Shown here piece after piece: positions 3,893 to 31,293 of a DNA stretch of 36,895 nucleotides. Each line of letters starts with the position of its first letter. Positions within the stretch are counted from its first letter, which is position 1. The position numbers and the translations under genes were made by a program. This DNA comes from an uncultured Bacilli bacterium (GTDB taxonomy: Bacteria; Bacillota_I; Bacilli_A; RFN20; CAG-826). The DNA is taken from NCBI GenBank assembly GCA_905236085.1, contig CAJOOD010000015.1, positions 1-36,895 on the forward strand. Reading direction: 5' to 3'. The notes beneath the pieces are model-generated. The model saw only the letters and a list, made by a program, of their open reading frames with translations. It ran no database searches and had not been told where the DNA came from.

Positions 3893-5221
3893 ATGATTTT
3901 TAAAAAAGGAGAAAATGTCGTCTTCACTGATTCTAGCAAGGCCACTGTCGTGGAGGAATTAGGAAGCGGCAAACAAGGTGTAGTTTATAAAGTTAAATAT
4001 AATAATGATTTTTATGCTTTAAAAATGTATAAATCTTCATTTCTTAAAAACCTTAAAGCTAGACATAAAGATAAAAAGTTCTATTTAAATCTAGCGGATA
4101 ATGTTTCTAGACAGACTGTTAGTCCAAACTTTATTTGGCCTTTAAGATTAACCGAAACATTTGATGATGGAACTTATGGTTATTTAATGGAATTAATCCC
4201 TGCAAATTATACCTCTTTTATGAAAATCCTTGCAAATCCCAGCAAATTAAAAGCAAATTATTTCTTTTCTATTGTCACCAAGGCATCGATAAATGTCGTT
4301 GATACATTAAGAAAGTTATTCATCAACGGCTTAAGTTTCCAAGACTTCAATGATGGCAGTTTATACATCAATCAAGATAATGGCGATATTAAAATTTGTG
4401 ACTGCGATAACATTGGACCAAATAATAAAGAAGCATTTATCTTAGGTAAATATCAATATATGGCCCCAGAGATTGCTTTAGGTCAAAAATTACCCAATCG
4501 AAGATCAGATCAATTCTCTTTATCGGTTATCTTATTTACCATGTTCTTCTTAACTAGGCCATTTGATGGGAAAGCTTATCGAAGCGAAATACCATCTGAA
4601 TCGGTAAATATCAAATATTTTGGAGAAAATCCGGTTTATATTTGTAATCCAAACGATCATTCTAATGGTCCGGTTAGAGGTATACATCGTGCGTTGATAT
4701 CTTTGTATCCTAAATATCCTGATTATCTTAAGCAAGCATTCTTAAAAGAATATACTCAAGGTTTAAAAAATGAGAACGCTAGACTTCAAGAAGATGAATG
4801 GCTATTTATCTTAACGAGATTAGAAAGCGATATCATCAAATGTCCATATTGTAAGGAAGAGATGTTTGTTAAAGATTTATCTCAAGATGTTTGTCAATGT
4901 GAAGAATGCAAGAAGACCTTTACTAGACCCACAATGCTATATGCGAATGAAAATGAGCATCTATATGGAGAATTTGGAAGGAAATTATACCGTTGGCAAG
5001 TGGACAATTCGCGTTTATTCTCTAATTCATCCTTAGACGTCTTAGGGGAAGTCACAGCCTCTAAAAAGAATCCAAATATTAAAATATTAAAGAATTTATC
5101 AAGAGATACATGGATATTAAATTATCAAGGAGAAGACAAAGAAATCTCTCCTGATAAGAATCTGCCATTAATTCGCGGACAATATGTCACGATTAATAAT
5201 AAAAAATTTACCATAAAATAA
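3893..5221 (+). CDS. Hanks-type Ser/Thr protein kinase with C-terminal Zn ribbon and FHA-like domain
   Basis: Gly loop GSGKQGVVY; YALK (K44); catalytic-loop-like FQDFNDGS; DFG-like CDCD; YMAPE; RSDQFSLSVILF. Zn ribbon CPYC...CQCEEC (aa 317-339). The ~90-aa tail resembles FHA (inference). Confidence 0.8.
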   Translation: MIFKKGENVVFTDSSKATVVEELGSGKQGVVYKVKYNNDFYALKMYKSSFLKNLKARHKDKKFYLNLADNVSRQTVSPNFIWPLRLTETFDDGTYGYLMELIPANYTSFMKILANPSKLKANYFFSIVTKASINVVDTLRKLFINGLSFQDFNDGSLYINQDNGDIKICDCDNIGPNNKEAFILGKYQYMAPEIALGQKLPNRRSDQFSLSVILFTMFFLTRPFDGKAYRSEIPSESVNIKYFGENPVYICNPNDHSNGPVRGIHRALISLYPKYPDYLKQAFLKEYTQGLKNENARLQEDEWLFILTRLESDIIKCPYCKEEMFVKDLSQDVCQCEECKKTFTRPTMLYANENEHLYGEFGRKLYRWQVDNSRLFSNSSLDVLGEVTASKKNPNIKILKNLSRDTWILNYQGEDKEISPDKNLPLIRGQYVTINNKKFTIK

Positions 5222-5233
5222 GGAGCATGAATT

Positions 5234-5974
5234 ATGTTAGTACCAGGTACACAAAAAAGACAATGCCTAATCTATTTAGTCATTGATACATCAGGAAGCA
5301 TGGATGGAACCAAGATTTCTCAGGTTAATTATTCCATACCTCAAGTATTATCAAGTATTCAAGATCTAAATGACTCTAATCCAGAAGCGGAGATAGAAGT
5401 GGCTTTATTAGCCTTTGATAGTCACGCTAGATGGGTAACTAAAAATCCAGAAAAACCAGAAGATTTGAAAAAACACTGGAAAGATTTAACCGCGAATGGA
5501 TTAACCGAATTAGGCGAAGCATGTAATTTCTTAAATGAAAAAATGCATAGAACCAAAAACGGAGGATTTCACGATGATTCCGCAGGTGCTTTAACTGCGG
5601 GTGTTATCTTTATTACTGATGGACTTCCAACTGGTTCATATAAACCAGCCTTAGCTAAATTACAAAAAAATCATTGGTATAAAGATGCTTTTAAATATTG
5701 TTTAGCTTGTGGTGATGATTTAAGCGAAGGAATGTCAGTATTTGAAGAATTAGTGGGTAACAATGAATGTATTCACCTCATTTCTGATGAAAATGCTTGT
5801 CGCTTAGGTGATTATATCCGTGTCGTTACCGCGATTGTGTCTGATTCAGTTTCATCTACTATTCCATTAGGAGAAACTAATAAAGAAGATAATAATCAAG
5901 GAACATTTAATCAAGACGCGGTTGATCAAATTAATGAAGAAGTTAAATCAATCGACGATTTAATTGACGACTAG
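5234..5974 (+). CDS. von Willebrand factor A (vWA) protein, TerY-like
   Basis: MIDAS motif DTSGS (D18/S20/S22), downstream T (GLTELG) and D (FITDGLPT). AAGGAG at 5220-5225. Acidic C-terminal tail. Confidence 0.85.
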   Translation: MLVPGTQKRQCLIYLVIDTSGSMDGTKISQVNYSIPQVLSSIQDLNDSNPEAEIEVALLAFDSHARWVTKNPEKPEDLKKHWKDLTANGLTELGEACNFLNEKMHRTKNGGFHDDSAGALTAGVIFITDGLPTGSYKPALAKLQKNHWYKDAFKYCLACGDDLSEGMSVFEELVGNNECIHLISDENACRLGDYIRVVTAIVSDSVSSTIPLGETNKEDNNQGTFNQDAVDQINEEVKSIDDLIDD

Positions 5975-5984
5975 GAGAAAGAAC

Positions 5985-6923
5985 ATGTTTGTCTCAAAGA
6001 TGTATTTTGTAACCGGTAATGCATCATTTATCGGTGCCTCACATGTTAGAAATAAAACTGTCTGCCAAGATGCATCTATTTCTCTTGTCGAAGAAAGAAC
6101 GAGAAAATACGCTCTATCTGCGGTTAGCGATGGACATGGTTCTAAGAAACATTTTCGTAGCGAATTAGGTTCTAAATTCGCTATTGAATGCGCAAAAGAA
6201 GTCGCTGAGAAAATATCAAGAAATTACCATAAAATTTTAAAAAATCTCAAAAAATATGGGGGATATGACGATAATTTTCTAAATTATATCGCCTCACAAA
6301 TAATCATTTTATGGAACAAAAAATGCATAGAGCATGTTAAAAATCATCCTTATGTTAATGATGAGAAATATCTTTTGTTAACTGATGAAGATAAGGCTTC
6401 TATTAATAAAGATAATGATTATATAAATGGAGACATTAATAATTTAAAAGCTTATGGAGCAACATTTCTCATGTATATCCGTTTTAAGGATTTCTCTTTG
6501 GTTCTGAAATTAGGGGATGGCAATGTCTTATTTATCAAAGATGAGAAAATATATGAAGATGAATCTATCATTGATAACAATTTAAAATTCAATCTAACAT
6601 CTTCATTGTGTTCTGAAGATGCCTTAAAGAAATTTAATTACAAATTCTTCGATAAAGAAAATACTCCAGATGCCGTATTAATTTCTAGCGATGGAATAAT
6701 TAATTCTTTTGAAAACGAGCAATATTTTTATACTTACTGCGCTAAAGTGGTCGATTTATATCTAAAAGAAGATAAGAGTTACGAAGATAAGATTAAGGAA
6801 CTATTAGAATCATTATCATATATCACCGAAACAGGTTCAGGCGATGATTGTTCTATAGCCTTTGTTATCAATAAAGATATCTCTCAATTTATCAAAGAAT
6901 ATCTAGCTAAGAAGGAAAATTAA
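5985..6923 (+). CDS. PP2C-family Ser/Thr protein phosphatase (PP2C_2-like)
   Basis: Start moved from TTG 5964 to ATG 5985 (AGGAGA at 5973-5978). Motifs: GASHVRNKTVCQD, AVSDGHGS, LGDGN, ISSDGI, GSGDDCSIAF. Confidence 0.8.
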   Translation: MFVSKMYFVTGNASFIGASHVRNKTVCQDASISLVEERTRKYALSAVSDGHGSKKHFRSELGSKFAIECAKEVAEKISRNYHKILKNLKKYGGYDDNFLNYIASQIIILWNKKCIEHVKNHPYVNDEKYLLLTDEDKASINKDNDYINGDINNLKAYGATFLMYIRFKDFSLVLKLGDGNVLFIKDEKIYEDESIIDNNLKFNLTSSLCSEDALKKFNYKFFDKENTPDAVLISSDGIINSFENEQYFYTYCAKVVDLYLKEDKSYEDKIKELLESLSYITETGSGDDCSIAFVINKDISQFIKEYLAKKEN

Positions 6924-6924
6924 A

Positions 6925-7875
6925 ATGTTTACCTTTTATTATTCCCAACTGAATTCGATTGAAAAGAAGATATATAACCAATATCTCTCAACTTTAAAAG
7001 AGAAGAAAAATACTTTTATAGTCACAGGGAATATCAAAGAAGAAAATCTTCTTCGAGCAAGAGATGCTTTGTTCTTCGATCATGCTGAAATATATGAACA
7101 AAGTAACGCCATGTCATATATGTTCTTGGGAAATATGTTAAAGGTGGAACTTGATTATTATTTTTCTATTGAAGATATAAAGAAATATGAACAAGAAATA
7201 ATTGCCTCTGTTATTAATAATTTTAAATTCTTAAAGATGTTATCTAGTGATTATGACAAATTAAAATATATTCATGATTATTTCTGCAACCATGTCACTT
7301 ATGATTTAGAAGAAGAAAACGCTTTTAATATCCTTGGACCACTTCTTAAAAATAGAGGTGTTTGTCAAGGGGTGGCTATGTCAGTAAAACTGATATGTGA
7401 TTATTTAAAAATCAAATGTTATATCGCCTATGGAACATTAAAAAAGGATGATGGAGAAGAAGGACATGCCTGGAATGTCGTTAATATCAATGATAATTGG
7501 TATCATTTAGATCTCACAAATGATTTAAATAATTATCAATTCTCTCTTGTATCATATGATTATTTTCTAATCTCCGATAGCGACATTTATAAGACTCATA
7601 CTCCTACAAAAGATTTTAAGATGATGCCGTGTATCGATAATAAACTGAATTATTATTACATGAATCATATCGCTTTTAATTCTTTATCTAAAGCGGTGGA
7701 TTATATAAATAACGCTTTTAAAAGTAGAGATGTTGTTAGGTTTAGATTATTGAGCAATGATGAAAAAGATTATTTTACTAGAATATTTACACGCATCAAA
7801 CTTACATCATATCAATCTATGAAATTAGAATATGTATTTAATAAACATTTAAACACTTACACAGTAAAAATATAA
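6925..7875 (+). CDS. Transglutaminase-like (papain-fold) Cys-His-Asp protein, cytoplasmic
   Basis: RGVCQGVAMSVKLICDYL (C147), EGHAWNVV (H181), WYHLDLT (D196). No signal peptide. The ATG is 1 nt after the PP2C stop. Confidence 0.8.
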   Translation: MFTFYYSQLNSIEKKIYNQYLSTLKEKKNTFIVTGNIKEENLLRARDALFFDHAEIYEQSNAMSYMFLGNMLKVELDYYFSIEDIKKYEQEIIASVINNFKFLKMLSSDYDKLKYIHDYFCNHVTYDLEEENAFNILGPLLKNRGVCQGVAMSVKLICDYLKIKCYIAYGTLKKDDGEEGHAWNVVNINDNWYHLDLTNDLNNYQFSLVSYDYFLISDSDIYKTHTPTKDFKMMPCIDNKLNYYYMNHIAFNSLSKAVDYINNAFKSRDVVRFRLLSNDEKDYFTRIFTRIKLTSYQSMKLEYVFNKHLNTYTVKI

Positions 7876-7884
7876 GGAAAGACA

Positions 7885-10800
7885 ATGGGAAATTTATTTA
7901 AGAGATTATCATCCAATTTATTAGATTTAGGCTTAAGAAATAAATTATTAAATTTCAAAGAGCAAAAGCTTAGATTTATTAAAATAATCGATCCTAATAT
8001 CGATAATATTTTCTCATGGATTACCTCTAATAAAGCTTTATATTTTAAAGTCTCACAATTAGAGATAAATGAAGATCCTAATCATGATTATAGTCAAACT
8101 TATCTAGCAAATTATCATGAGAAATTAAATAAATACGATATCAGCGCCTATAAGAAGCATGAGAAATTATTATATATCTTAAAGAATCTAAAGAAATTTA
8201 ATGATTCTGCTTTATTAGAAAGAGGAATTAATATCTTATATCTCGCTTTAAATTTTATGGTTTGGGAGGATATTGATAATCCAAAAACCCCTCTAAAGTC
8301 CCCTCTTTTATTAATTCCTGTTAATTTATCCTACGATAAGAATCTACAAAAATATTATTTAAGAATGGTCTCAGACGAGGTGATAGTCAACCCAGTTTTA
8401 AAAGCTAAATTACAATTATCATATTCTCTTGATTTACCTGAATATGATAATGATAAAGATGATAATATCTCATATATCAATAAAATTAATCGCATAATTA
8501 AAATGAAAAACTGGAGTCTTTTAAATGAGATATATTTAGGTGTATTCTCATTTGAAAAATTAACCATGTATCAAGACTTAAAAGAAAATGAAAATAAGAT
8601 GGAATCATCTTCTTTAATAAGAGCCTTATATAACGGAGAAAGTGGGATAATATTTAATAATGAATTTAATGGAAAAGATTTCTTTAAAAATTCTTTAGAT
8701 GTTACCTCTTTACACAATGTAGTCGATGCTGATTCATCACAACTAGAAGCTATAGCCAAAGCCAAAAATGGTGATTCTTTTGTCATTCAAGGCCCTCCAG
8801 GAACTGGGAAATCACAAACTATTACTAATATTATTTCTGAGATGATATATCAAGGAAAAAGAGTATTGTTCGTATCAGAAAAACTCGCCGCTTTAAATAT
8901 TGTTTATAGTAATTTAAAAAAAGCCAAATTAGATGACTTTATCATGAAAATTCATAGCGATAAGGAGAATAAAAAGAATTTTGTTTATGAATTATATCGC
9001 TCATATAAAGCTGCGAAATATATTTCTTCAAATAGAGAAAAGAAATTAGAAGCTTTATTAACTAATAAGGAAGAATTAGATAATTATGATAAAGCTATAC
9101 ATAGATATATCCCTAAATTAGAGATGGATGTTTATTCCTTAATATCTAAGATGTATGAATCGAAAATTCATCTTGATAATTATGAAGATAAAAAATTATT
9201 ATCTTTAACTAATAATGATTTAAAGGCGCGTCTTGATGCTTTACATAATTTTGCTAATTATCCCACTAAGGTTAGAGATGATTATTGGAATTATGCATGG
9301 TATGGTTTTAAAGGCGATAAGCATAATACCTTATTTGAAGATAATATCATTATCAAGATTAAGGAATATTATTATTTTGTTAATACTTTAAAATTCTTCA
9401 AAGACAAGATTAATACATTTTTAGATATTGATTTATCTACCTATAATAAAATTGATAAGAGTCTTGAGTTATTAAAAACCATTAAAAAAATGCCATTTAT
9501 AGCTAAGGATATTTACCGCAAGGAAAGGCTCAATTTCTATAAAAAAACCTTAGAAATAATATATTTTCACTTAAAAAGATGCTTAGAAACCAGAGCCCAT
9601 ATCGAAAGCCTTTATTATGATGATATCTATTTATTAGACATCGAAAGATTAAATAATGATTTTCATAATAAATATAAAACTCATTTCCGTTTCTTTAATT
9701 CATCTTATCGCAAAGACATGAAAATGATTAAGATGTCTCTTAGAAACAAAGACAACAAATTAAATTATGAATCCGTGAAAGATTTAATTTCTAAGGTCTA
9801 TTTATTCTTGAGTGATAAATGTGTATTAGATCTAGCTTATCAAGATTTAGATTTCTTAAAAGATAATAATCTCAACTTTGAAAAATACTCCTTAGAGGAG
9901 ATTAAACGTGTATTAGATCTATTAACTGATATATCTAATAATTATGACGCTGATATTAATTATTTAGAAAAATATGATTATTCGCATTATCAAGAATTAA
10001 ATAAATATATTGATATCATACTTAACACTATGAATGATAAAGATAAGCATGAAAGACTTTATAATTATTTTGAAGTGTCAATTATTAATTTCAAAAATGG
10101 CTTAATAGATGAAGTAGTTCCTTATGTTTATAATTTAATCAAACATGAAGGTGAAGTTGATGATTACTCTAGATTCTATTTATACATGCAAGAATTTGAA
10201 AAATTAGGCATCTTAGATTTTTATAAAACTGCGATTAATAACGGAGTCAAGAAAAGTGAATTATTAGATGCTTTTTCCTATATCTTTTATAAGGAACATT
10301 TTAAAAATATCTATCTAACCAGCGCCGATTTGCGGGGTTTTGATGATGATAAACTGAATAATATCCATGAAGCATATAAGAAATTAGATACGGAATTATT
10401 CGATTTAAATCAAAAAGAAATCAAGGCGGAATTGTTTAAAAAAGTCTTAGATAAATCTAATAAAAATGAGGCTTCTAATCGCGCTATAATTAAGGAATTC
10501 TCTTTAATTGAACATGAAGCCAATAAGAAAAGACAGATAAAACCGATTAGAACATTATTTAAAGAAGCTTCTAATGCGATTAGATATATTAAGCCTTGTT
10601 TATTGATGTCACCTTTAAGTGTTGCAACTTATTTAGAATACGACGAGAATTTATTTGATGTTCTCATCTTTGATGAAGCTTCACAAATTTTCCCTTGGGA
10701 CGCTATTGGATCCATTGCAAGAAGCAAACAAATAATTGTCTCTGGCGACTCTAAGCAAATGCCACCATCTAATTTCTTCCAGACATCTAATATTGTTTAT

Positions 10801-12804
10801 GACGATGAATATTTAGACGAGGAAGAAGAAAATATAAATGATTATGAATCGATATTAGATTTAGCCACCGCAGTCTTACCTGATTCATCTTTAAATTGGC
10901 ATTATAGAAGTAGAAATGAATCATTGATCACTTTTTCTAATCATCATTTCTACGATGATAAATTAATCACTTTTCCATCATCTTTAATAAATAATTCCGA
11001 TTTTGGCTTGGATTTTGAATATGTTAGTAACGGAACATTTATAAATAGAATTAATTATGAAGAAGGCTTAAAAGTAGTGGATATGATTTATGAGCATTAT
11101 AAAAATCATCCCGAAAGATCTCTAGGAGTGGTGGCCTTTTCTATTTCCCAACAGCAATTAATCGAGGACTTATTGGACGTAAAAAGGAAGATAGATGATC
11201 GCTATGCTCCATATTTTAATCAGGAAATAAAAGAGCCTTTCTTTATTAAGAATTTAGAAACTGTGCAAGGGGATGAAAGGGATACCATAATATTTTCTAT
11301 TGGCTACGCTAAAGATAATAATGGAATATTAAAACACAATTTCGGTCCATTGAATAGAAAAGGCGGAGAAAGAAGATTAAATGTCGCTATTACAAGAGCG
11401 AAATATAATGTTAAAGTTGTTTCTTCGATTCGTGGGATGGATATAGATTTATCTAAAACAAATTCTTTAGGAGCCTCTTTATTAAAATCATATTTAGAAG
11501 CTGCAGAAAAGGGTGTTAACATTACCTCTAGTATGACTAGAGAAAATAACATAACTTTTGCCTTAGAAGAAGATATTAAAAAATATATTAAATCTTTAAA
11601 TTATGATGTTGATACTAAGGTTGGATATTCTGATTATCGTATCGATTTATGTGTCAAACATCCAAAATACAATAATTATGTTTTAGCTATTGAATGTGAT
11701 GGTGAAAATTATCACAAAAATAAGAATACAAGAGATAGAGAGCGACTAAGAGAAAACATCTTAGGAAGATTAGGATGGAAATATCATCGCATTTATTCCT
11801 TAGATTGGCTTTTAAATAACAATATAGCCAAAGCAAAATTAGTAAGCATCATCAATAGAGCTATCAATGATTATGATGATTTAATCGCTCAAATGAATCC
11901 TGTTAAAGTTATCAGTAATAATGTGGTGAATTATAATGATGGTGATAATCTTTTCTATGACGAATTAACATATAAAGAAAGATATCTTATCGATCAATTA
12001 AATGATGATATTAATAATCTAAATTATCGATTCATTAGATATAATAACACTGATAATTATGGCTATTGTTATGAGCAAGATATCAATAATAAAATAAATG
12101 ATTATTGGTTCTATTTCTCGAAAAATAATGGCGATTTGCTATTTAATTACATATTAAATCCTGGCGCAAATAGGATTAAATATGAAGGAATTAAAGTGGA
12201 TTTAGATGATACAAAGAGCATTTCTTACACCATTAAAAGTTTAATTAAAGATAGATTTGGTTTTAAAATCAATAAGAATAGAATAAGCATTAAAAATACG
12301 AGTGTCTTACCTAATCTATCATTAAAATTGTATGAGAATATAGTTAAGGAAATCAAAGGTATACCATATAACGCCGAATATAAGCAAAACAAGGTTATTA
12401 AGGATGTTGTTAACTATTTGTATGATGACATTATTAATTATGCGATATCTAGAAGATTATTTAAGAGTAAAGATGATTTCTATAAAAACAAAAATACGAA
12501 AATAGTATCTTATAATTTCCATGGAATTATCTTTGATTTTGATAATTTAAACCCCTCAATTGCCAAAACCATATACGACTATTATAAAGCTAACGCTTTG
12601 ATTAACGTGGTGAGACATTATGAGAATATGTTTTCTGAAACCATCATTATCAATCAAAAAGTGGTAATGGAAGATTTTAAAAACCTTATCGCTATTAATG
12701 ATGTTAATTTCTCTAGAGCTTCGGGCATGAATGATAATTTCCAAGATGTTCCTAATTTGCTATTAATCGACAAACTTAAATCATTTATTCCAGTAGAAAA
12801 TTAA
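7885..12804 (+). CDS. DUF4011 / Upf1-like SF1 helicase fused to a Vsr/DUF559-like endonuclease, plus an unassigned ~330-aa C-terminus (Hhe-like)
   Basis: N-terminal LLDLGLRNKLLNF (DUF4011-type). Walker A GPPGTGKS (aa 303-310). LIFDEASQ (aa 927-934), VSGDSKQMPP, WHYRS, TVQGDERDTIIFS, RRLNVAITRAK. Nuclease YRIDL...LAIECDGENYH...RDRERLRENILGRLGW (aa ~1250-1300). Confidence 0.85.
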   Translation: MGNLFKRLSSNLLDLGLRNKLLNFKEQKLRFIKIIDPNIDNIFSWITSNKALYFKVSQLEINEDPNHDYSQTYLANYHEKLNKYDISAYKKHEKLLYILKNLKKFNDSALLERGINILYLALNFMVWEDIDNPKTPLKSPLLLIPVNLSYDKNLQKYYLRMVSDEVIVNPVLKAKLQLSYSLDLPEYDNDKDDNISYINKINRIIKMKNWSLLNEIYLGVFSFEKLTMYQDLKENENKMESSSLIRALYNGESGIIFNNEFNGKDFFKNSLDVTSLHNVVDADSSQLEAIAKAKNGDSFVIQGPPGTGKSQTITNIISEMIYQGKRVLFVSEKLAALNIVYSNLKKAKLDDFIMKIHSDKENKKNFVYELYRSYKAAKYISSNREKKLEALLTNKEELDNYDKAIHRYIPKLEMDVYSLISKMYESKIHLDNYEDKKLLSLTNNDLKARLDALHNFANYPTKVRDDYWNYAWYGFKGDKHNTLFEDNIIIKIKEYYYFVNTLKFFKDKINTFLDIDLSTYNKIDKSLELLKTIKKMPFIAKDIYRKERLNFYKKTLEIIYFHLKRCLETRAHIESLYYDDIYLLDIERLNNDFHNKYKTHFRFFNSSYRKDMKMIKMSLRNKDNKLNYESVKDLISKVYLFLSDKCVLDLAYQDLDFLKDNNLNFEKYSLEEIKRVLDLLTDISNNYDADINYLEKYDYSHYQELNKYIDIILNTMNDKDKHERLYNYFEVSIINFKNGLIDEVVPYVYNLIKHEGEVDDYSRFYLYMQEFEKLGILDFYKTAINNGVKKSELLDAFSYIFYKEHFKNIYLTSADLRGFDDDKLNNIHEAYKKLDTELFDLNQKEIKAELFKKVLDKSNKNEASNRAIIKEFSLIEHEANKKRQIKPIRTLFKEASNAIRYIKPCLLMSPLSVATYLEYDENLFDVLIFDEASQIFPWDAIGSIARSKQIIVSGDSKQMPPSNFFQTSNIVYDDEYLDEEEENINDYESILDLATAVLPDSSLNWHYRSRNESLITFSNHHFYDDKLITFPSSLINNSDFGLDFEYVSNGTFINRINYEEGLKVVDMIYEHYKNHPERSLGVVAFSISQQQLIEDLLDVKRKIDDRYAPYFNQEIKEPFFIKNLETVQGDERDTIIFSIGYAKDNNGILKHNFGPLNRKGGERRLNVAITRAKYNVKVVSSIRGMDIDLSKTNSLGASLLKSYLEAAEKGVNITSSMTRENNITFALEEDIKKYIKSLNYDVDTKVGYSDYRIDLCVKHPKYNNYVLAIECDGENYHKNKNTRDRERLRENILGRLGWKYHRIYSLDWLLNNNIAKAKLVSIINRAINDYDDLIAQMNPVKVISNNVVNYNDGDNLFYDELTYKERYLIDQLNDDINNLNYRFIRYNNTDNYGYCYEQDINNKINDYWFYFSKNNGDLLFNYILNPGANRIKYEGIKVDLDDTKSISYTIKSLIKDRFGFKINKNRISIKNTSVLPNLSLKLYENIVKEIKGIPYNAEYKQNKVIKDVVNYLYDDIINYAISRRLFKSKDDFYKNKNTKIVSYNFHGIIFDFDNLNPSIAKTIYDYYKANALINVVRHYENMFSETIIINQKVVMEDFKNLIAINDVNFSRASGMNDNFQDVPNLLLIDKLKSFIPVEN

Positions 12805-25242: not shown

Positions 25243-25884
25243 ATGGCAGAAAAGAAATCCGTAAGCGTTAAGGTTTATAACCAAGCTGGTGAAGAAGTTT
25301 CCAAACTCGCCCTTGATGCTAAAGTATTCGGTGTTGAACCAAACAATCAAGCTATGTTCGATGCTGTCCAAGTATATCAAGCTAACTCTCGTCAAGGTAC
25401 GGCTAAAACTAAAGTCAGACATGAAGTGAGTGGCGGTGGTAAAAAACCTTGGAGACAAAAAGGAACAGGCCGTGCTCGTGCCGGTTCATCTCGTTCCCCA
25501 ATCTGGGTTGGAGGCGGTACCGTCTTTGGTCCAGTTGGAAACCAAAATTGGAAACTTTCTCAAAATAAAGAAGAACATCGCGTCGCGTTAAGATCCGCTT
25601 TATCCTTAAAAGTTAAAGAATGCTTAGTAGTCGTCGATGAACTCAAATTTGAAGAAATTAAAACCAAAAACTTCGTCAAAGTATTAGAAAACTTACACTT
25701 AGATTCCGCGAAACTCTTAGTGGTTGATGAAGAATTAAGCGACAACTTAGTTAAATCCGCTGATAATGTTGGATTTGTCAAATTAGTAGTCCCAGGCAAT
25801 GTAAGCGTTTATGACTTACTCAATGCTGATGGCTTATTAATCACTAAGAACGCTATCAAGAAATTAGAGGAGGCTTTGAAATAA
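25243..25884 (+). CDS. rplD: 50S ribosomal protein L4
   Basis: GGGKKPWRQKGTGRARAGSSRSPIWVGGG. Confidence 0.97.
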   Translation: MAEKKSVSVKVYNQAGEEVSKLALDAKVFGVEPNNQAMFDAVQVYQANSRQGTAKTKVRHEVSGGGKKPWRQKGTGRARAGSSRSPIWVGGGTVFGPVGNQNWKLSQNKEEHRVALRSALSLKVKECLVVVDELKFEEIKTKNFVKVLENLHLDSAKLLVVDEELSDNLVKSADNVGFVKLVVPGNVSVYDLLNADGLLITKNAIKKLEEALK

Positions 25885-25886
25885 TT

Positions 25887-26669
25887 ATGGCCGCAAAATA
25901 CGTTATTAACAAAACTGCAACCGGTTATACCTTTGCACTCCAAGCCACTAACGGTCAAAACGTTGGTGTATCCCAAGTATTCAAAACACTTGAAGCTGCT
26001 CAAGCTGGTGTCGAATCCGTCCGTAAGGTCGCTTCCACTGCTGGAGTAGAAGACCAAACAGCTGAAGAAGTAAATAAGCTCGAAAATCCTAAATTTGAAT
26101 TATATAAGGATAAAAAGGGAGAATTCCGCTTCAGATTACTCGACACTGAAGGTCAAAATATTCTTGTTTCTGAAGGTTACACAACCTTAAAGGCTTGCCA
26201 AAACGGTATCGCTTCTGTCGCTAAGAATTCTGTTGCGGAAACAGTCCTCTTACCAGAAGAAGATGCTCCAAAAGCCGATGAAAGCAAAGAAGAGAAGGCT
26301 CCAAAAGCAGAAAAACCTGCTAAGAAAGCCAAAAAAGAAGCAAAGAAGGAAGAAGCAAAGAAAGGATTTGCTAAACCAACCTTCAAAGACTTAGAAGTCA
26401 TCATCCGTCCAGTCATCACTGAAAAGTCGATGTCCTTGATGCAAGATGAAAACAAAGTCACATTAGTCGTTAGACCTGACGCCAATAAGACTGAAATCAA
26501 ATTAGCATTCGAAAGAATCTATCAAGTTACAGTTACCAGTGTCAAAGTATCTAACGTCAAGCCTAAGACAACCACTCGTGGTACCAGATATCATGGCAAG
26601 ATCAGCGGTTATAAAAAGGCAGTCGTTACTATCGCAGAAGGCGAAGCAATCGACTTATTCAAAGAATAG
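25887..26669 (+). CDS. rplW: 50S ribosomal protein L23 with an N-terminal tandem YegP/DUF1508-like extension (260 aa)
   Basis: aa ~166-260 form a normal L23 core (IIRPVITEKSM..., YKKAVVTIAEGEAIDLF). aa 4-116 are two YegP-like repeats. The linker is K/A/E/P-rich. One uninterrupted ORF in the rplW slot. Confidence 0.9.
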   Translation: MAAKYVINKTATGYTFALQATNGQNVGVSQVFKTLEAAQAGVESVRKVASTAGVEDQTAEEVNKLENPKFELYKDKKGEFRFRLLDTEGQNILVSEGYTTLKACQNGIASVAKNSVAETVLLPEEDAPKADESKEEKAPKAEKPAKKAKKEAKKEEAKKGFAKPTFKDLEVIIRPVITEKSMSLMQDENKVTLVVRPDANKTEIKLAFERIYQVTVTSVKVSNVKPKTTTRGTRYHGKISGYKKAVVTIAEGEAIDLFKE

Positions 26670-26705: not shown

Positions 26706-27542
26706 ATGTCAATAAGAAATTACAAACCTACGACACCAAGCCGTAGAAACATGACAAACGCGACATTTAGCGAAATTACCACATCCACTCCTGAAAAAAG
26801 TTTATTAGTCAAAAAGTCTAAGACAGGCGGTCGTAATAACCAAGGCGTTATCACAACCCGTCACATAGGTGGTGGACATAAGCAAAAATATCGTGTTATC
26901 GATTTTAAAAGAAATAAGGATAATATTCCTGCCGTCGTAAAGACAGTTGAATATGATCCAAACCGTAATGCTTACATCTGTTTAGTTGCCTATTTAGACG
27001 GTGAAAAACGTTACATCCTCTTCCCACAAGGATTAAAAGTGGGAGACAGAATTATCTCTGGCGAATCAGCGGATATCAAGCCAGGTAATGCGATGCCATT
27101 AAAATCCATTCCAGAAGGTACATTAATTCATAACATTGAATTGACTCCTGGCAAAGGTGGACAAATGGTAAGAGCCGCAGGAACAAGTGCTCAAGTACTC
27201 GGTTCCGAAGGCAAATATACCATCTTAAGACTTGCTTCTGGCGAACAAAGAAAAGTATTAGCCGCTTGCCGCGCCACTGTTGGTGTAGTTGGTAATGAAG
27301 ATTACAGCTTAATCAACAAGGGTAAAGCTGGTAAGACCAGATGGGAAGGCACTCGTCCAACAGTTCGTGGTTCCGTTATGAACCCAGTTGATCACCCACA
27401 TGGTGGTGGTGAAGGTAAATCCCCAGTTGGAAGAGATGCTCCAAGAACGCCATGGGGAAAGAGAGCCTTAGGCGTCAAGACTAGAAAACAAAAGAAATCT
27501 TCTACTAAATTAATTATGAAACGTAGAAGTTCAGGTAAATAA
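26706..27542 (+). CDS. rplB: 50S ribosomal protein L2
   Basis: [29 protein letters not shown]. Confidence 0.97.
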
Positions 27543-27861: not shown

Positions 27862-28365
27862 ATGGCAGAAGAAAAGAAAACCACAGTAGCGGAAGAAGAA
27901 AAAGCTACCAAGAAAAGTGCTGCTAAGAAAGCAGCTCCTAAAAAAGAAAAAGAAGTTAAAGAAGTAGAAGTTAAAGAATCCAAGAAGGAAAAGAAAGCTA
28001 AAAAGGTTGAAGAACCTGTCAAGCCAACTCCTACTGAAGCAAGAGCTACCGCTCGCGACGTTAGAGTCACACCACGTAAAGTGAGATTAGTAATCGATGT
28101 CGTTAGAGGAAAAGATGTTAAAGAAGCCTTAGGTATCCTTGGAAACTTGAATAAAGCCGCCAGCTTACCTGTCGCTAAATTAATTAAATCGGCAGCCGCT
28201 AATGCCACCAATAACTTCGGCTTAGATGAATCTAGATTATATATCGCAGAAATCTACGCTAACGATGGCATCAGAATGAAAAGATATCTTCCACGTGCTA
28301 AAGGTTCAGCATCTGGATTAGTAAAAAGAGCCAGCAACATCACTGTTGTGGTCAAAATGAGATAA
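27862..28365 (+). CDS. rplV: 50S ribosomal protein L22 with a ~58-aa K/E/A-rich N-terminal extension
   Basis: Core starts near ARATARDVRVTPRKVRLVIDVVRGK. 167 aa. Confidence 0.95.
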   Translation: MAEEKKTTVAEEEKATKKSAAKKAAPKKEKEVKEVEVKESKKEKKAKKVEEPVKPTPTEARATARDVRVTPRKVRLVIDVVRGKDVKEALGILGNLNKAASLPVAKLIKSAAANATNNFGLDESRLYIAEIYANDGIRMKRYLPRAKGSASGLVKRASNITVVVKMR

Positions 28366-30702: not shown

Positions 30703-31293
30703 ATGGCAGAAGAAAAGAAAGTCGCAGCCAAGAAAGCTGCTCCTGAAAAAGTCGAAAACCGTGTGAAAGCTAAATATGAAAACGAAGTCAAAAAGGCTTT
30801 AGTGGAAAAATTTGCTTACACATCCGTTATGCAAGTCCCTGCTTTGAAGAAGATTGTCATCAATGTCGGTGTCGGTGATGCCTTACAAGATGCCAAACGT
30901 TTAGAAGAAGCAGTCGCAGAATTGACCTTAATCTCTGGACAAAAACCAGTTATTACCAAAGCCAAAAAGTCCATCGCTAACTATAAGTTAAGAGAAGGAC
31001 AAGAAATCGGCGCTAAAGTTGATTTACACGGTGCAAGAATGTATGAATTCTTCGATAAATTAGTTTCCATCGTCTTACCACGTGTTAGAGACTTTAGAGG
31101 TGTCAATCCAAATGCCTTTGATGGTAGAGGTAATTACACCTTAGGTGTCAAGGAACAATCCATCTTCCCAGAAATCGAATATGATAAGATTTCTAAAATC
31201 AGAGGTATGGATATCGTCATTGTCACCAGTGCAAAGACTGATAAAGAAGCATACGAATTACTTAAATTATTAGGTATGCCATTTTCTAGATAA
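30703..31293 (+). CDS. rplE: 50S ribosomal protein L5 with a ~17-aa K/A/E-rich N-terminal extension
   Basis: [29 protein letters not shown]. Confidence 0.96.

Follow-up and report, generated by a model that had tools for sequence, protein, structure and literature searches.

Background

DUF1508 (PF07411), the domain of the YegP or UPF0339 family, is widespread in bacteria and archaea and has been represented by structures since 2007-2008. Its known members are free proteins of ~110-130 aa or forms fused to membrane anchors, ubiquitin-like domains or NsnA. In the literature E. coli yegP is described as stress-induced and is placed downstream of the capK/capS stress regulators, the architecture of YegP is given as a pseudo-dimer or a homodimer, and tandem DUF1508 repeats have been proposed to resemble the single-strand binders of the sPC4/Whirly type (PMC12065111). 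A search of the literature for functional data on YegP and HVO_2922 returned none.

Small folded domains attached to components of the translation apparatus have precedents. In eukaryotes, eS31/RPS27A and eL40/UBA52 carry a folded ubiquitin domain in frame at the N-terminus of the ribosomal protein. Tryptophanyl-tRNA synthetases of the PRK12284 type have a DUF1508-like region at the C-terminus. Further, ribosomal proteins S6, L22, L23 and L29 of Mycoplasma pneumoniae carry lineage-specific extensions (Xue et al., bioRxiv 10.1101/2021.12.18.473270). Such extensions are frequent in small-genome, Mollicutes-like Bacilli, are solvent-exposed on proteins around the exit tunnel, and are mostly disordered and rich in lysine, just as are the linker of the protein described here and the extensions of its unfused relatives.

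The locus considered here, a uL23 gene with an N-terminal YegP module, can be compared with each of these. With E. coli YegP and its structurally characterized relatives (2K8E, 2K49, 3BID, 6Q2Z) it shares the same two-repeat pseudo-dimer fold, conserved residues included; it differs in that the module is covalently attached to uL23, taken as essential, and falls in a separate long-stemmed clade. The likeness to the ubiquitin-ribosomal protein fusions lies in the small folded N-terminal domain joined in frame, whereas the fold is that of YegP instead of a beta-grasp and the two parts are held apart by a long spacer; the 44-aa linker contains no GG motif of the kind that serves as the ubiquitin-type processing site. 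The tryptophanyl-tRNA synthetases similarly unite a DUF1508-like region with a core translation protein, but the partner is another one and so is the end to which the region is attached. Finally, the extensions of the M. pneumoniae type are disordered tails or single helices, in contrast to the autonomous folded domain of a known family seen here, which additionally recurs on three different proteins. The fusion is a lineage-specific elaboration of ribosomal proteins whose nearest known counterparts are free YegP and the mostly disordered ribosomal protein extensions.

A two-repeat YegP module in frame with the sole uL23

The window, i.e., the whole 36,895-bp stretch of DNA that was analysed, is a complete contig of a 1.34-Mb metagenome-assembled genome (193 contigs, 90% completeness, 3.1% contamination) from an uncultured bacterium of gut or rumen with a small genome; all data considered here, those on the relatives included, come from metagenome assemblies. 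The fused gene occupies the rplW slot of the S10 operon (Table 1). Its open reading frame starts with ATG 2 nt after the stop codon of rplD and is uninterrupted, and this spacing, together with the Shine-Dalgarno-like GAGGAGG, is the usual coupled arrangement. Profile searches recognize both halves: two stretches match DUF1508 (Pfam PF07411, 103.3 bits with a cut-off of 22, E 6e-30), and aa 170-256 match Ribosomal_L23 (Pfam PF00276, 94.9 bits with a cut-off of 30.8, E 4e-27), with the uL23 equivalog NF004363 of NCBIfam scoring 97 bits on the fused frame (cut-off 81). Repeat 2 bears the highly conserved NPKF...GEFRFRL...EGYTT motif, and in the core E179 and K180 of the ITEKS motif are invariant, E179 among 46 relatives.

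Table 1. Coordinates of the fused gene, its parts and related genes in the window, and genomes with fusions on uL5
Feature	Position or genomes	Strand	Remarks
rplD (uL4), upstream neighbour	25243..25884	+	stop TAA 25882-25884
Shine-Dalgarno-like GAGGAGG, inside the 3' end of rplD	25867..25873	+	13 nt before ATG
Whole fused gene (rplW slot), 260 aa + stop	25887..26669	+	28.6 kDa calculated, pI 9.2
DUF1508 repeat 1, aa 1-56	25887..26054	+	three strands, helix, fourth strand (VEDQ); profile match 25917-26054, 47 bits
DUF1508 repeat 2, aa 66-122	26082..26252	+	profile match 26109-26246, 62 bits
Lys/Ala/Glu/Pro-rich linker, aa 123-165	26253..26381	+	predicted disordered
uL23 core, aa 166-260, ITEKS docking motif intact	26382..26666	+	Pfam, NCBIfam, model pLDDT 93-98
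rplB (uL2), downstream neighbour	26706..27542	+	
rplV (uL22), 167 aa, ~55-aa K/E-rich N-extension, without module	27862..28365	+	
rplE (uL5), 196 aa, ~17-aa K-rich N-extension, without module	30703..31293	+	
uL5-fusion genomes, genus g31	G266, G280, G252, G287, G235, G182		family scan
uL5-fusion genomes, genera g63 and g24	G154, G220 (g63); G345 (g24)		family scan

In a scripted scan of the codons of the fused frame, the first in-frame ATG, GTG or TTG after the start codon was that of Met182, which lies inside the conserved uL23 core, C-terminal to the ITEKS motif; a separate initiation of L23 at a canonical codon is therefore not available. The 90%-complete genome yields a single L23 match, which is the fused gene, and two DUF1508 matches, both being the repeats of the fused uL23 (61.8 and 47.3 bits in the whole-genome scan). 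These observations confirm a genuine in-frame gene fusion, by which the sole uL23 of the organism carries a two-repeat YegP module. They also bear out a preliminary description of the locus, which had reported one uninterrupted 260-aa frame between rplD and rplB, had assigned its halves to DUF1508 and L23, and had noted that the latter has no canonical start of its own.

Three more assemblies in ENA, with contigs named in three different styles, encode a 260-aa protein identical to that of the window; one of these copies lies on a 19.9-kb scaffold in the order rplD, fusion, rplB, rpsS, rplV. As all three are 100% identical to the window's frame at the nucleotide level, they represent the same strain recovered repeatedly and carry no information on selection, and the uL23 fusion is thus known from one strain-level sequence only.

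Fold of the module and nature of the tether

The module (aa 1-126) was modelled with AlphaFold2 from an alignment of 89 sequences, giving a pLDDT of 95.8 and a pTM of 0.87, with each repeat folded as three strands and a helix, closed by a fourth strand (aa 53-56 in the first repeat and aa 119-121 in the second). In a Foldseek search of the PDB this model matched E. coli YegP (2K8E) with an E-value of 1e-9, TM-scores of 0.80/0.86 and an rmsd of 2.0 Å, followed by Shewanella SO3888 (2K49) and then by the single-domain structures 3BID and 6Q2Z; a phmmer search of the PDB recovered the same proteins. PC4 and Whirly folds are absent from the best 50 Foldseek matches of the module in the PDB. Consistent with the YegP assignment, the 9 invariant and 30 near-invariant positions of the 89-module alignment are all retained in the window's module. 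A further match of the module was to chain AD of PDB 7b5h, a 1109-aa baseplate protein of an Anabaena contractile injection system (match probability 0.99, TM 0.56, 105 columns).

Module and full-length protein were modelled separately because a joint MAFFT alignment placed repeat 2 on the L23 core, and the full-length model was accordingly built with uL23 homologues only. In it the uL23 core is the confidently modelled part (Table 1), the linker has pLDDT values of 31-49 and the stretch aa 96-142 stays below 50; with an overall pTM of 0.44 the model fixes no packing of the domains against each other. Taken together, the models predict an architecture in which a folded 13-kDa YegP pseudo-dimer would be connected to uL23 by a flexible tether of ~44 residues. 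In its sequence, the tether is similar at first (PEEDAPKADESKEEKAPKAEKPAKK) to the linkers of the uL5 fusions treated below, and its last part (AKKEAKKEEAKKGFAKPTFKD, continuing into the first residues of the core) is the counterpart of the native N-terminal extension of uL23 in the same genus.

Related fusions on uL5 and uL22

A search of 5.8 billion proteins returned a single uL23 fusion, namely the window's own, along with ~30 clusters of proteins of 350-384 aa that combine DUF1508 with Ribosomal_L5 and L5_C. The latter share one layout, with an N-terminal two-repeat module, the sequence LPEE(E/D), a K/A/E/P linker and uL5, and their modules are 58-63% identical to that of the window. In the named records, 'Bacilli bacterium RGIG9216' from water deer rumen and 'uncultured Erysipelotrichaceae RUG14619', these fusions sit in the rplE slot between rplX and rpsH. 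Among the genomes of the window's GTDB family, 9 of 401 carry such a uL5 fusion (Table 1). A third partner is uL22, fused in a Pfam-confirmed protein of 282 aa from a single species (genome G325, genus g24), of which dozens of contigs supplied 15 variants with 95-100% identity. This protein bears the plain annotation L22 at NCBI and JGI, and the database labels of the fusions read only L22 or L23. Within one family of uncultured, small-genome Bacilli, fusions of one module clade thus occur on three large-subunit proteins, uL5, uL22 and uL23.

The fusions have several features in common. The module is always N-terminal and precedes a K-rich extension, an LPEE motif follows its last strand in nearly all of them, and the length of the linker ranges between some 44 and some 130 aa. 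There is exactly one fused module per carrier genome, and beside the fused gene no other real copy of the ribosomal protein in question exists there; in genera poor in DUF1508 genes the fused module is the sole YegP-type match of the carrier genome. Carriers occur patchily, in 2 of the 58 species of g24 and in some but not all species of g31 and g63; in the window's own genus (g1) the window is the one carrier among seven species, the six others being devoid of any DUF1508. No second, diverged uL23 fusion was found in the 5.8-billion-protein search, in 401 genomes of the family plus 401 of the order, or in a scan of JGI metagenomes, and the 401 order genomes yielded no ribosome-fused modules in other families.

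It follows that the preliminary description was right in regarding the fusion as real but not in treating it as unique, orthologous modules being present on uL22 and, far more often, on uL5 in sister genera. Its impression that the fusion had not been described agrees with the literature, in which no publication on ribosomal fusions of DUF1508, YegP or UPF0339 was found; likewise, the searchable literature yielded neither a folded DUF1508 on a ribosomal protein nor one on three different ribosomal proteins.

Several other proteins came to light alongside these fusions. On a 1246-bp ENA contig, a fused-clade module with the linker start LPEEEEE is joined to FakA-like_C (PF13684); this protein, P0030, is either a real fourth partner or the product of a chimeric short contig. 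P0018, of 149 aa on a 2863-bp ENA contig, looks like a stand-alone representative of the fused clade with an odd Arg/Cys-rich tail immediately behind LPEGEKEEAP, and is probably a frameshifted or mis-sequenced uL5 fusion. Genus g24, in G029 (L004:904-2385) and about 45 other genomes, possesses a membrane-anchored YegP family of ~480-650 aa, in which N-terminal membrane helices and a long acidic stretch accompany two to four DUF1508 repeats; membrane-anchored YegP is hence common in this genus and ribosomal fusions are rare. Another tethered form of DUF1508 is encoded on SDBU01004516.1 (L181:1227-1745), where a Pro/Ala/Lys-rich repeat linker connects a single repeat to a membrane helix at the C-terminus.

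Origin and possible relocation of the module

Two trees were computed, a quick one of 128 modules and a careful IQ-TREE reconstruction of 75 modules. In both, all ribosome-fused modules form one clade (UFBoot 100 / SH-aLRT 96) on a stem of 0.42. Within it the uL23-borne module of the window is sister to the other 35 fused modules (97/89), and the uL22 module is nested among those on uL5. Stand-alone two-repeat genes, be they from the same order (G044, G080) or from rumen and gut Clostridia, fall elsewhere in the tree.

The recipients of the module already had extensions of the relevant kind. Unfused uL23 proteins of the same genus are 120-126 aa long and begin with a K-rich N-extension (MAEETKKAKK...RFAKPTFKD), and unfused uL5 of g31 has a K/A/P extension of ~50 aa that ends in ...KAKTGNKKAA... 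as it does in the fused forms. Additionally, the uL5 core of the g24 carrier G345 is typical of its own genus and not of g31. The pre-existing extensions and this native core indicate that resident proteins with an extension already in place received the module and the first part of the linker. The modules on uL5 are 58-63% identical to that of the window, less than the 74-76% by which their uL5 cores match the uL5 core of the window, a difference that fits either an old split or faster change after relocation. The patchy distribution may reflect either transfer or loss. A recent horizontal transfer was considered on the basis of composition and rejected: with a GC content of 41.5%, a GC3 of 32.0% and a codon-adaptation index of 0.71, the module matches the flanking ribosomal protein genes and is indistinguishable from the operon.

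As for how a module could move between ribosomal proteins, rplV and rplE of the window, both of which lack a module, start with an identical stretch of 18 nt (ATGGCAGAAGAAAAGAAA) and share a similar AAKKAAP-coding stretch, for which the local score is 42 against a shuffle maximum of 29, in sequence of low complexity. Ribosomal protein genes of this operon have nearly identical 5' ends in common, and these, with the low-complexity extensions, could offer sites of in-frame recombination for relocation, which is only suggestive. Several ribosomal proteins of the family start with MAEEKK. In the uL5-fusion genomes, uS17 has an acidic C-extension of ~45 aa (L018:1894-2286; L019:356-751) and uS5 a basic/acidic N-extension of ~45 aa (L018:5643-6266; L019:4074-4718); altogether, this family shows an unusual degree of elaboration in its ribosomal proteins.

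The uL22 fusion, sampled as a natural population, allows the parts of a fused protein to be compared for variability. Variable positions amount to 9 of 125 in the module (7%), all of them conservative changes, to 11 of 47 in the linker (23%, including a 4-aa indel) and to 4 of 110 in the core (4%). This pattern indicates that the module is constrained and that the linker behaves as a spacer. The fused clade has been maintained across genera as well as within natural populations, and bacterial ribosomal proteins can gain, and apparently exchange, whole folded domains by way of disordered N-extensions, rather than tails alone.

Functional considerations

uL23 is essential in E. coli and B. subtilis. 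It sits with uL22 at the rim of the tunnel exit, and uL5 belongs to the central protuberance, at the opposite side of the subunit. If uL23 is taken as essential in the present organism too, the lack of both a second copy and an internal start means that every 50S subunit would be expected to carry one YegP module, its leash anchored next to the rim of the tunnel exit. Such constitutive one-to-one tethering would keep the module at a high local concentration on the 50S surface. Further, because the attachment site is interchangeable between uL5, uL22 and uL23, a position-independent action is probable and a purely exit-tunnel role is weakened; the module would then probably act on something diffusible or spread over the ribosome, and not on a site found solely at the exit. 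On balance, it appears somewhat probable that the YegP module is hard-wired one-to-one to the 50S surface, its exact position not being critical, as a putative binder of single-stranded RNA or of a ligand. The single module clade on three large-subunit proteins ties a domain of unknown function to the 50S subunit and provides a testable hypothesis, namely that YegP acts at the ribosome.

The likeliest activity of the module might be single-stranded RNA binding, or else the binding of another ribosome-associated ligand. The first of these sits uneasily with charge, in that the net charge of the fused modules is near-neutral (0 to +4, against a mean of +4.3 in the more basic stand-alone modules), which is unlike what would be expected of a strong RNA binder. 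A hint at nucleic acids comes from the sPC4/Whirly likeness proposed for tandem DUF1508 (PMC12065111), which the best 50 Foldseek matches did not reproduce. A hint at a second link to translation may lie in the YegP-like C-terminal part of the tryptophanyl-tRNA synthetases, as positions 332-421 of the 431 in the NCBIfam profile PRK12284 match aa 46-138 of the window's protein with an E-value of 1e-8. The free, stress-induced YegP of most bacteria may do the same job in trans. The still broader view that YegP/DUF1508 proteins are in general associated with the ribosome or translation, e.g., as stress-induced factors that bind the large subunit or RNA at the ribosome, is entertained here as a tentative possibility; the fusions would then amount to a 'Rosetta stone' hard-wiring of an otherwise transient interaction, the module being movable by recombination within N-extensions. 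In gut Firmicutes the surroundings of 78 stand-alone yegP genes revealed no conserved context and no conserved translation-related neighbours: the 132 neighbours scanned match 158 Pfam families, each seen at most three times.

The module could alternatively be a passenger, fused for no other reason than to share the high expression of a ribosomal protein and acting independently of the ribosome, possibly after release by a protease, in which case it would simply be tolerated on floppy, solvent-facing extensions. The disordered linkers of variable length, the changing attachment site, the patchy distribution (2 of 58 species in g24, 1 of 7 in g1) and the absence of a predicted conserved contact between module and uL23 are all compatible with this. 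However, simple hitch-hiking would be expected to reach other highly expressed genes too, whereas the partners in complete genomes are large-subunit proteins only, the exception being P0030 on its 1.2-kb contig. Moreover, the fused modules form a single long-stemmed clade apart from the free YegP genes, nearly all have the LPEE motif after their last strand, and in DUF1508-poor genera they are the sole YegP-type match of their carriers. A mere passenger is therefore considered unlikely.

The preliminary description had drawn its meaning from the place of uL23 at the tunnel exit, where a tethered module might act on nascent chains or modulate the docking of trigger factor, SRP or the translocon. 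In keeping with such a role, the linker starts ~12 residues before the conserved ITEKS docking motif, that motif is intact, trigger factor is encoded in the window's genome, and uL22, also a carrier, borders the exit (established structure; 10.1101/2021.12.18.473270). This interpretation is nevertheless weakened by the finding that the same monophyletic module is carried by uL5, by far the commonest carrier and part of the central protuberance, and that all three carrier proteins bear orthologous modules, so that the exit is unlikely to be the point. Additionally, the extensions of L22, L23 and L29 in M. pneumoniae lie >30 Å away from the exit, and contact with the nascent chain was judged to be beyond their reach (10.1101/2021.12.18.473270). 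A specific exit-site function is hence regarded as distinctly improbable, in favour of the module acting on the 50S surface irrespective of its point of attachment.

A role in cis can also be envisaged, in which the near-neutral module and the acidic LPEE(E/D) behind it would aid folding or assembly by keeping the basic, disordered N-extension soluble until the protein is assembled. The module is indeed always N-terminal, always precedes a pre-existing K-rich extension and is directly followed by the acidic stretch, much in analogy to the ubiquitin moieties on eukaryotic eS31 and eL40. Yet in most species of the family such K-rich extensions occur on their own, with no module attached, there is no cleavage motif, and YegP has no known link to chaperoning, all of which makes an in-cis aid very unlikely. 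Lastly, that assembly or sequencing merely joined a separate yegP-like gene to rplW is extremely unlikely, even though the metagenome-assembled genome of the window is in 193 fragments and 3.1% contaminated, given the identical sequence in three other assemblies, the fit of the module's codon usage to the operon, a free L23 that would be left without any start codon and, as the strongest argument, the homologous open-frame fusions on other ribosomal proteins, with 58-85% identity, in many genomes and contigs.

Elsewhere in the window, 3893-12804 holds a Ser/Thr-kinase-like gene and a gene of 27% GC for a 1639-aa protein with DUF4011, SF1 helicase and MTES_1575 nuclease regions; the two together look like a defence island.
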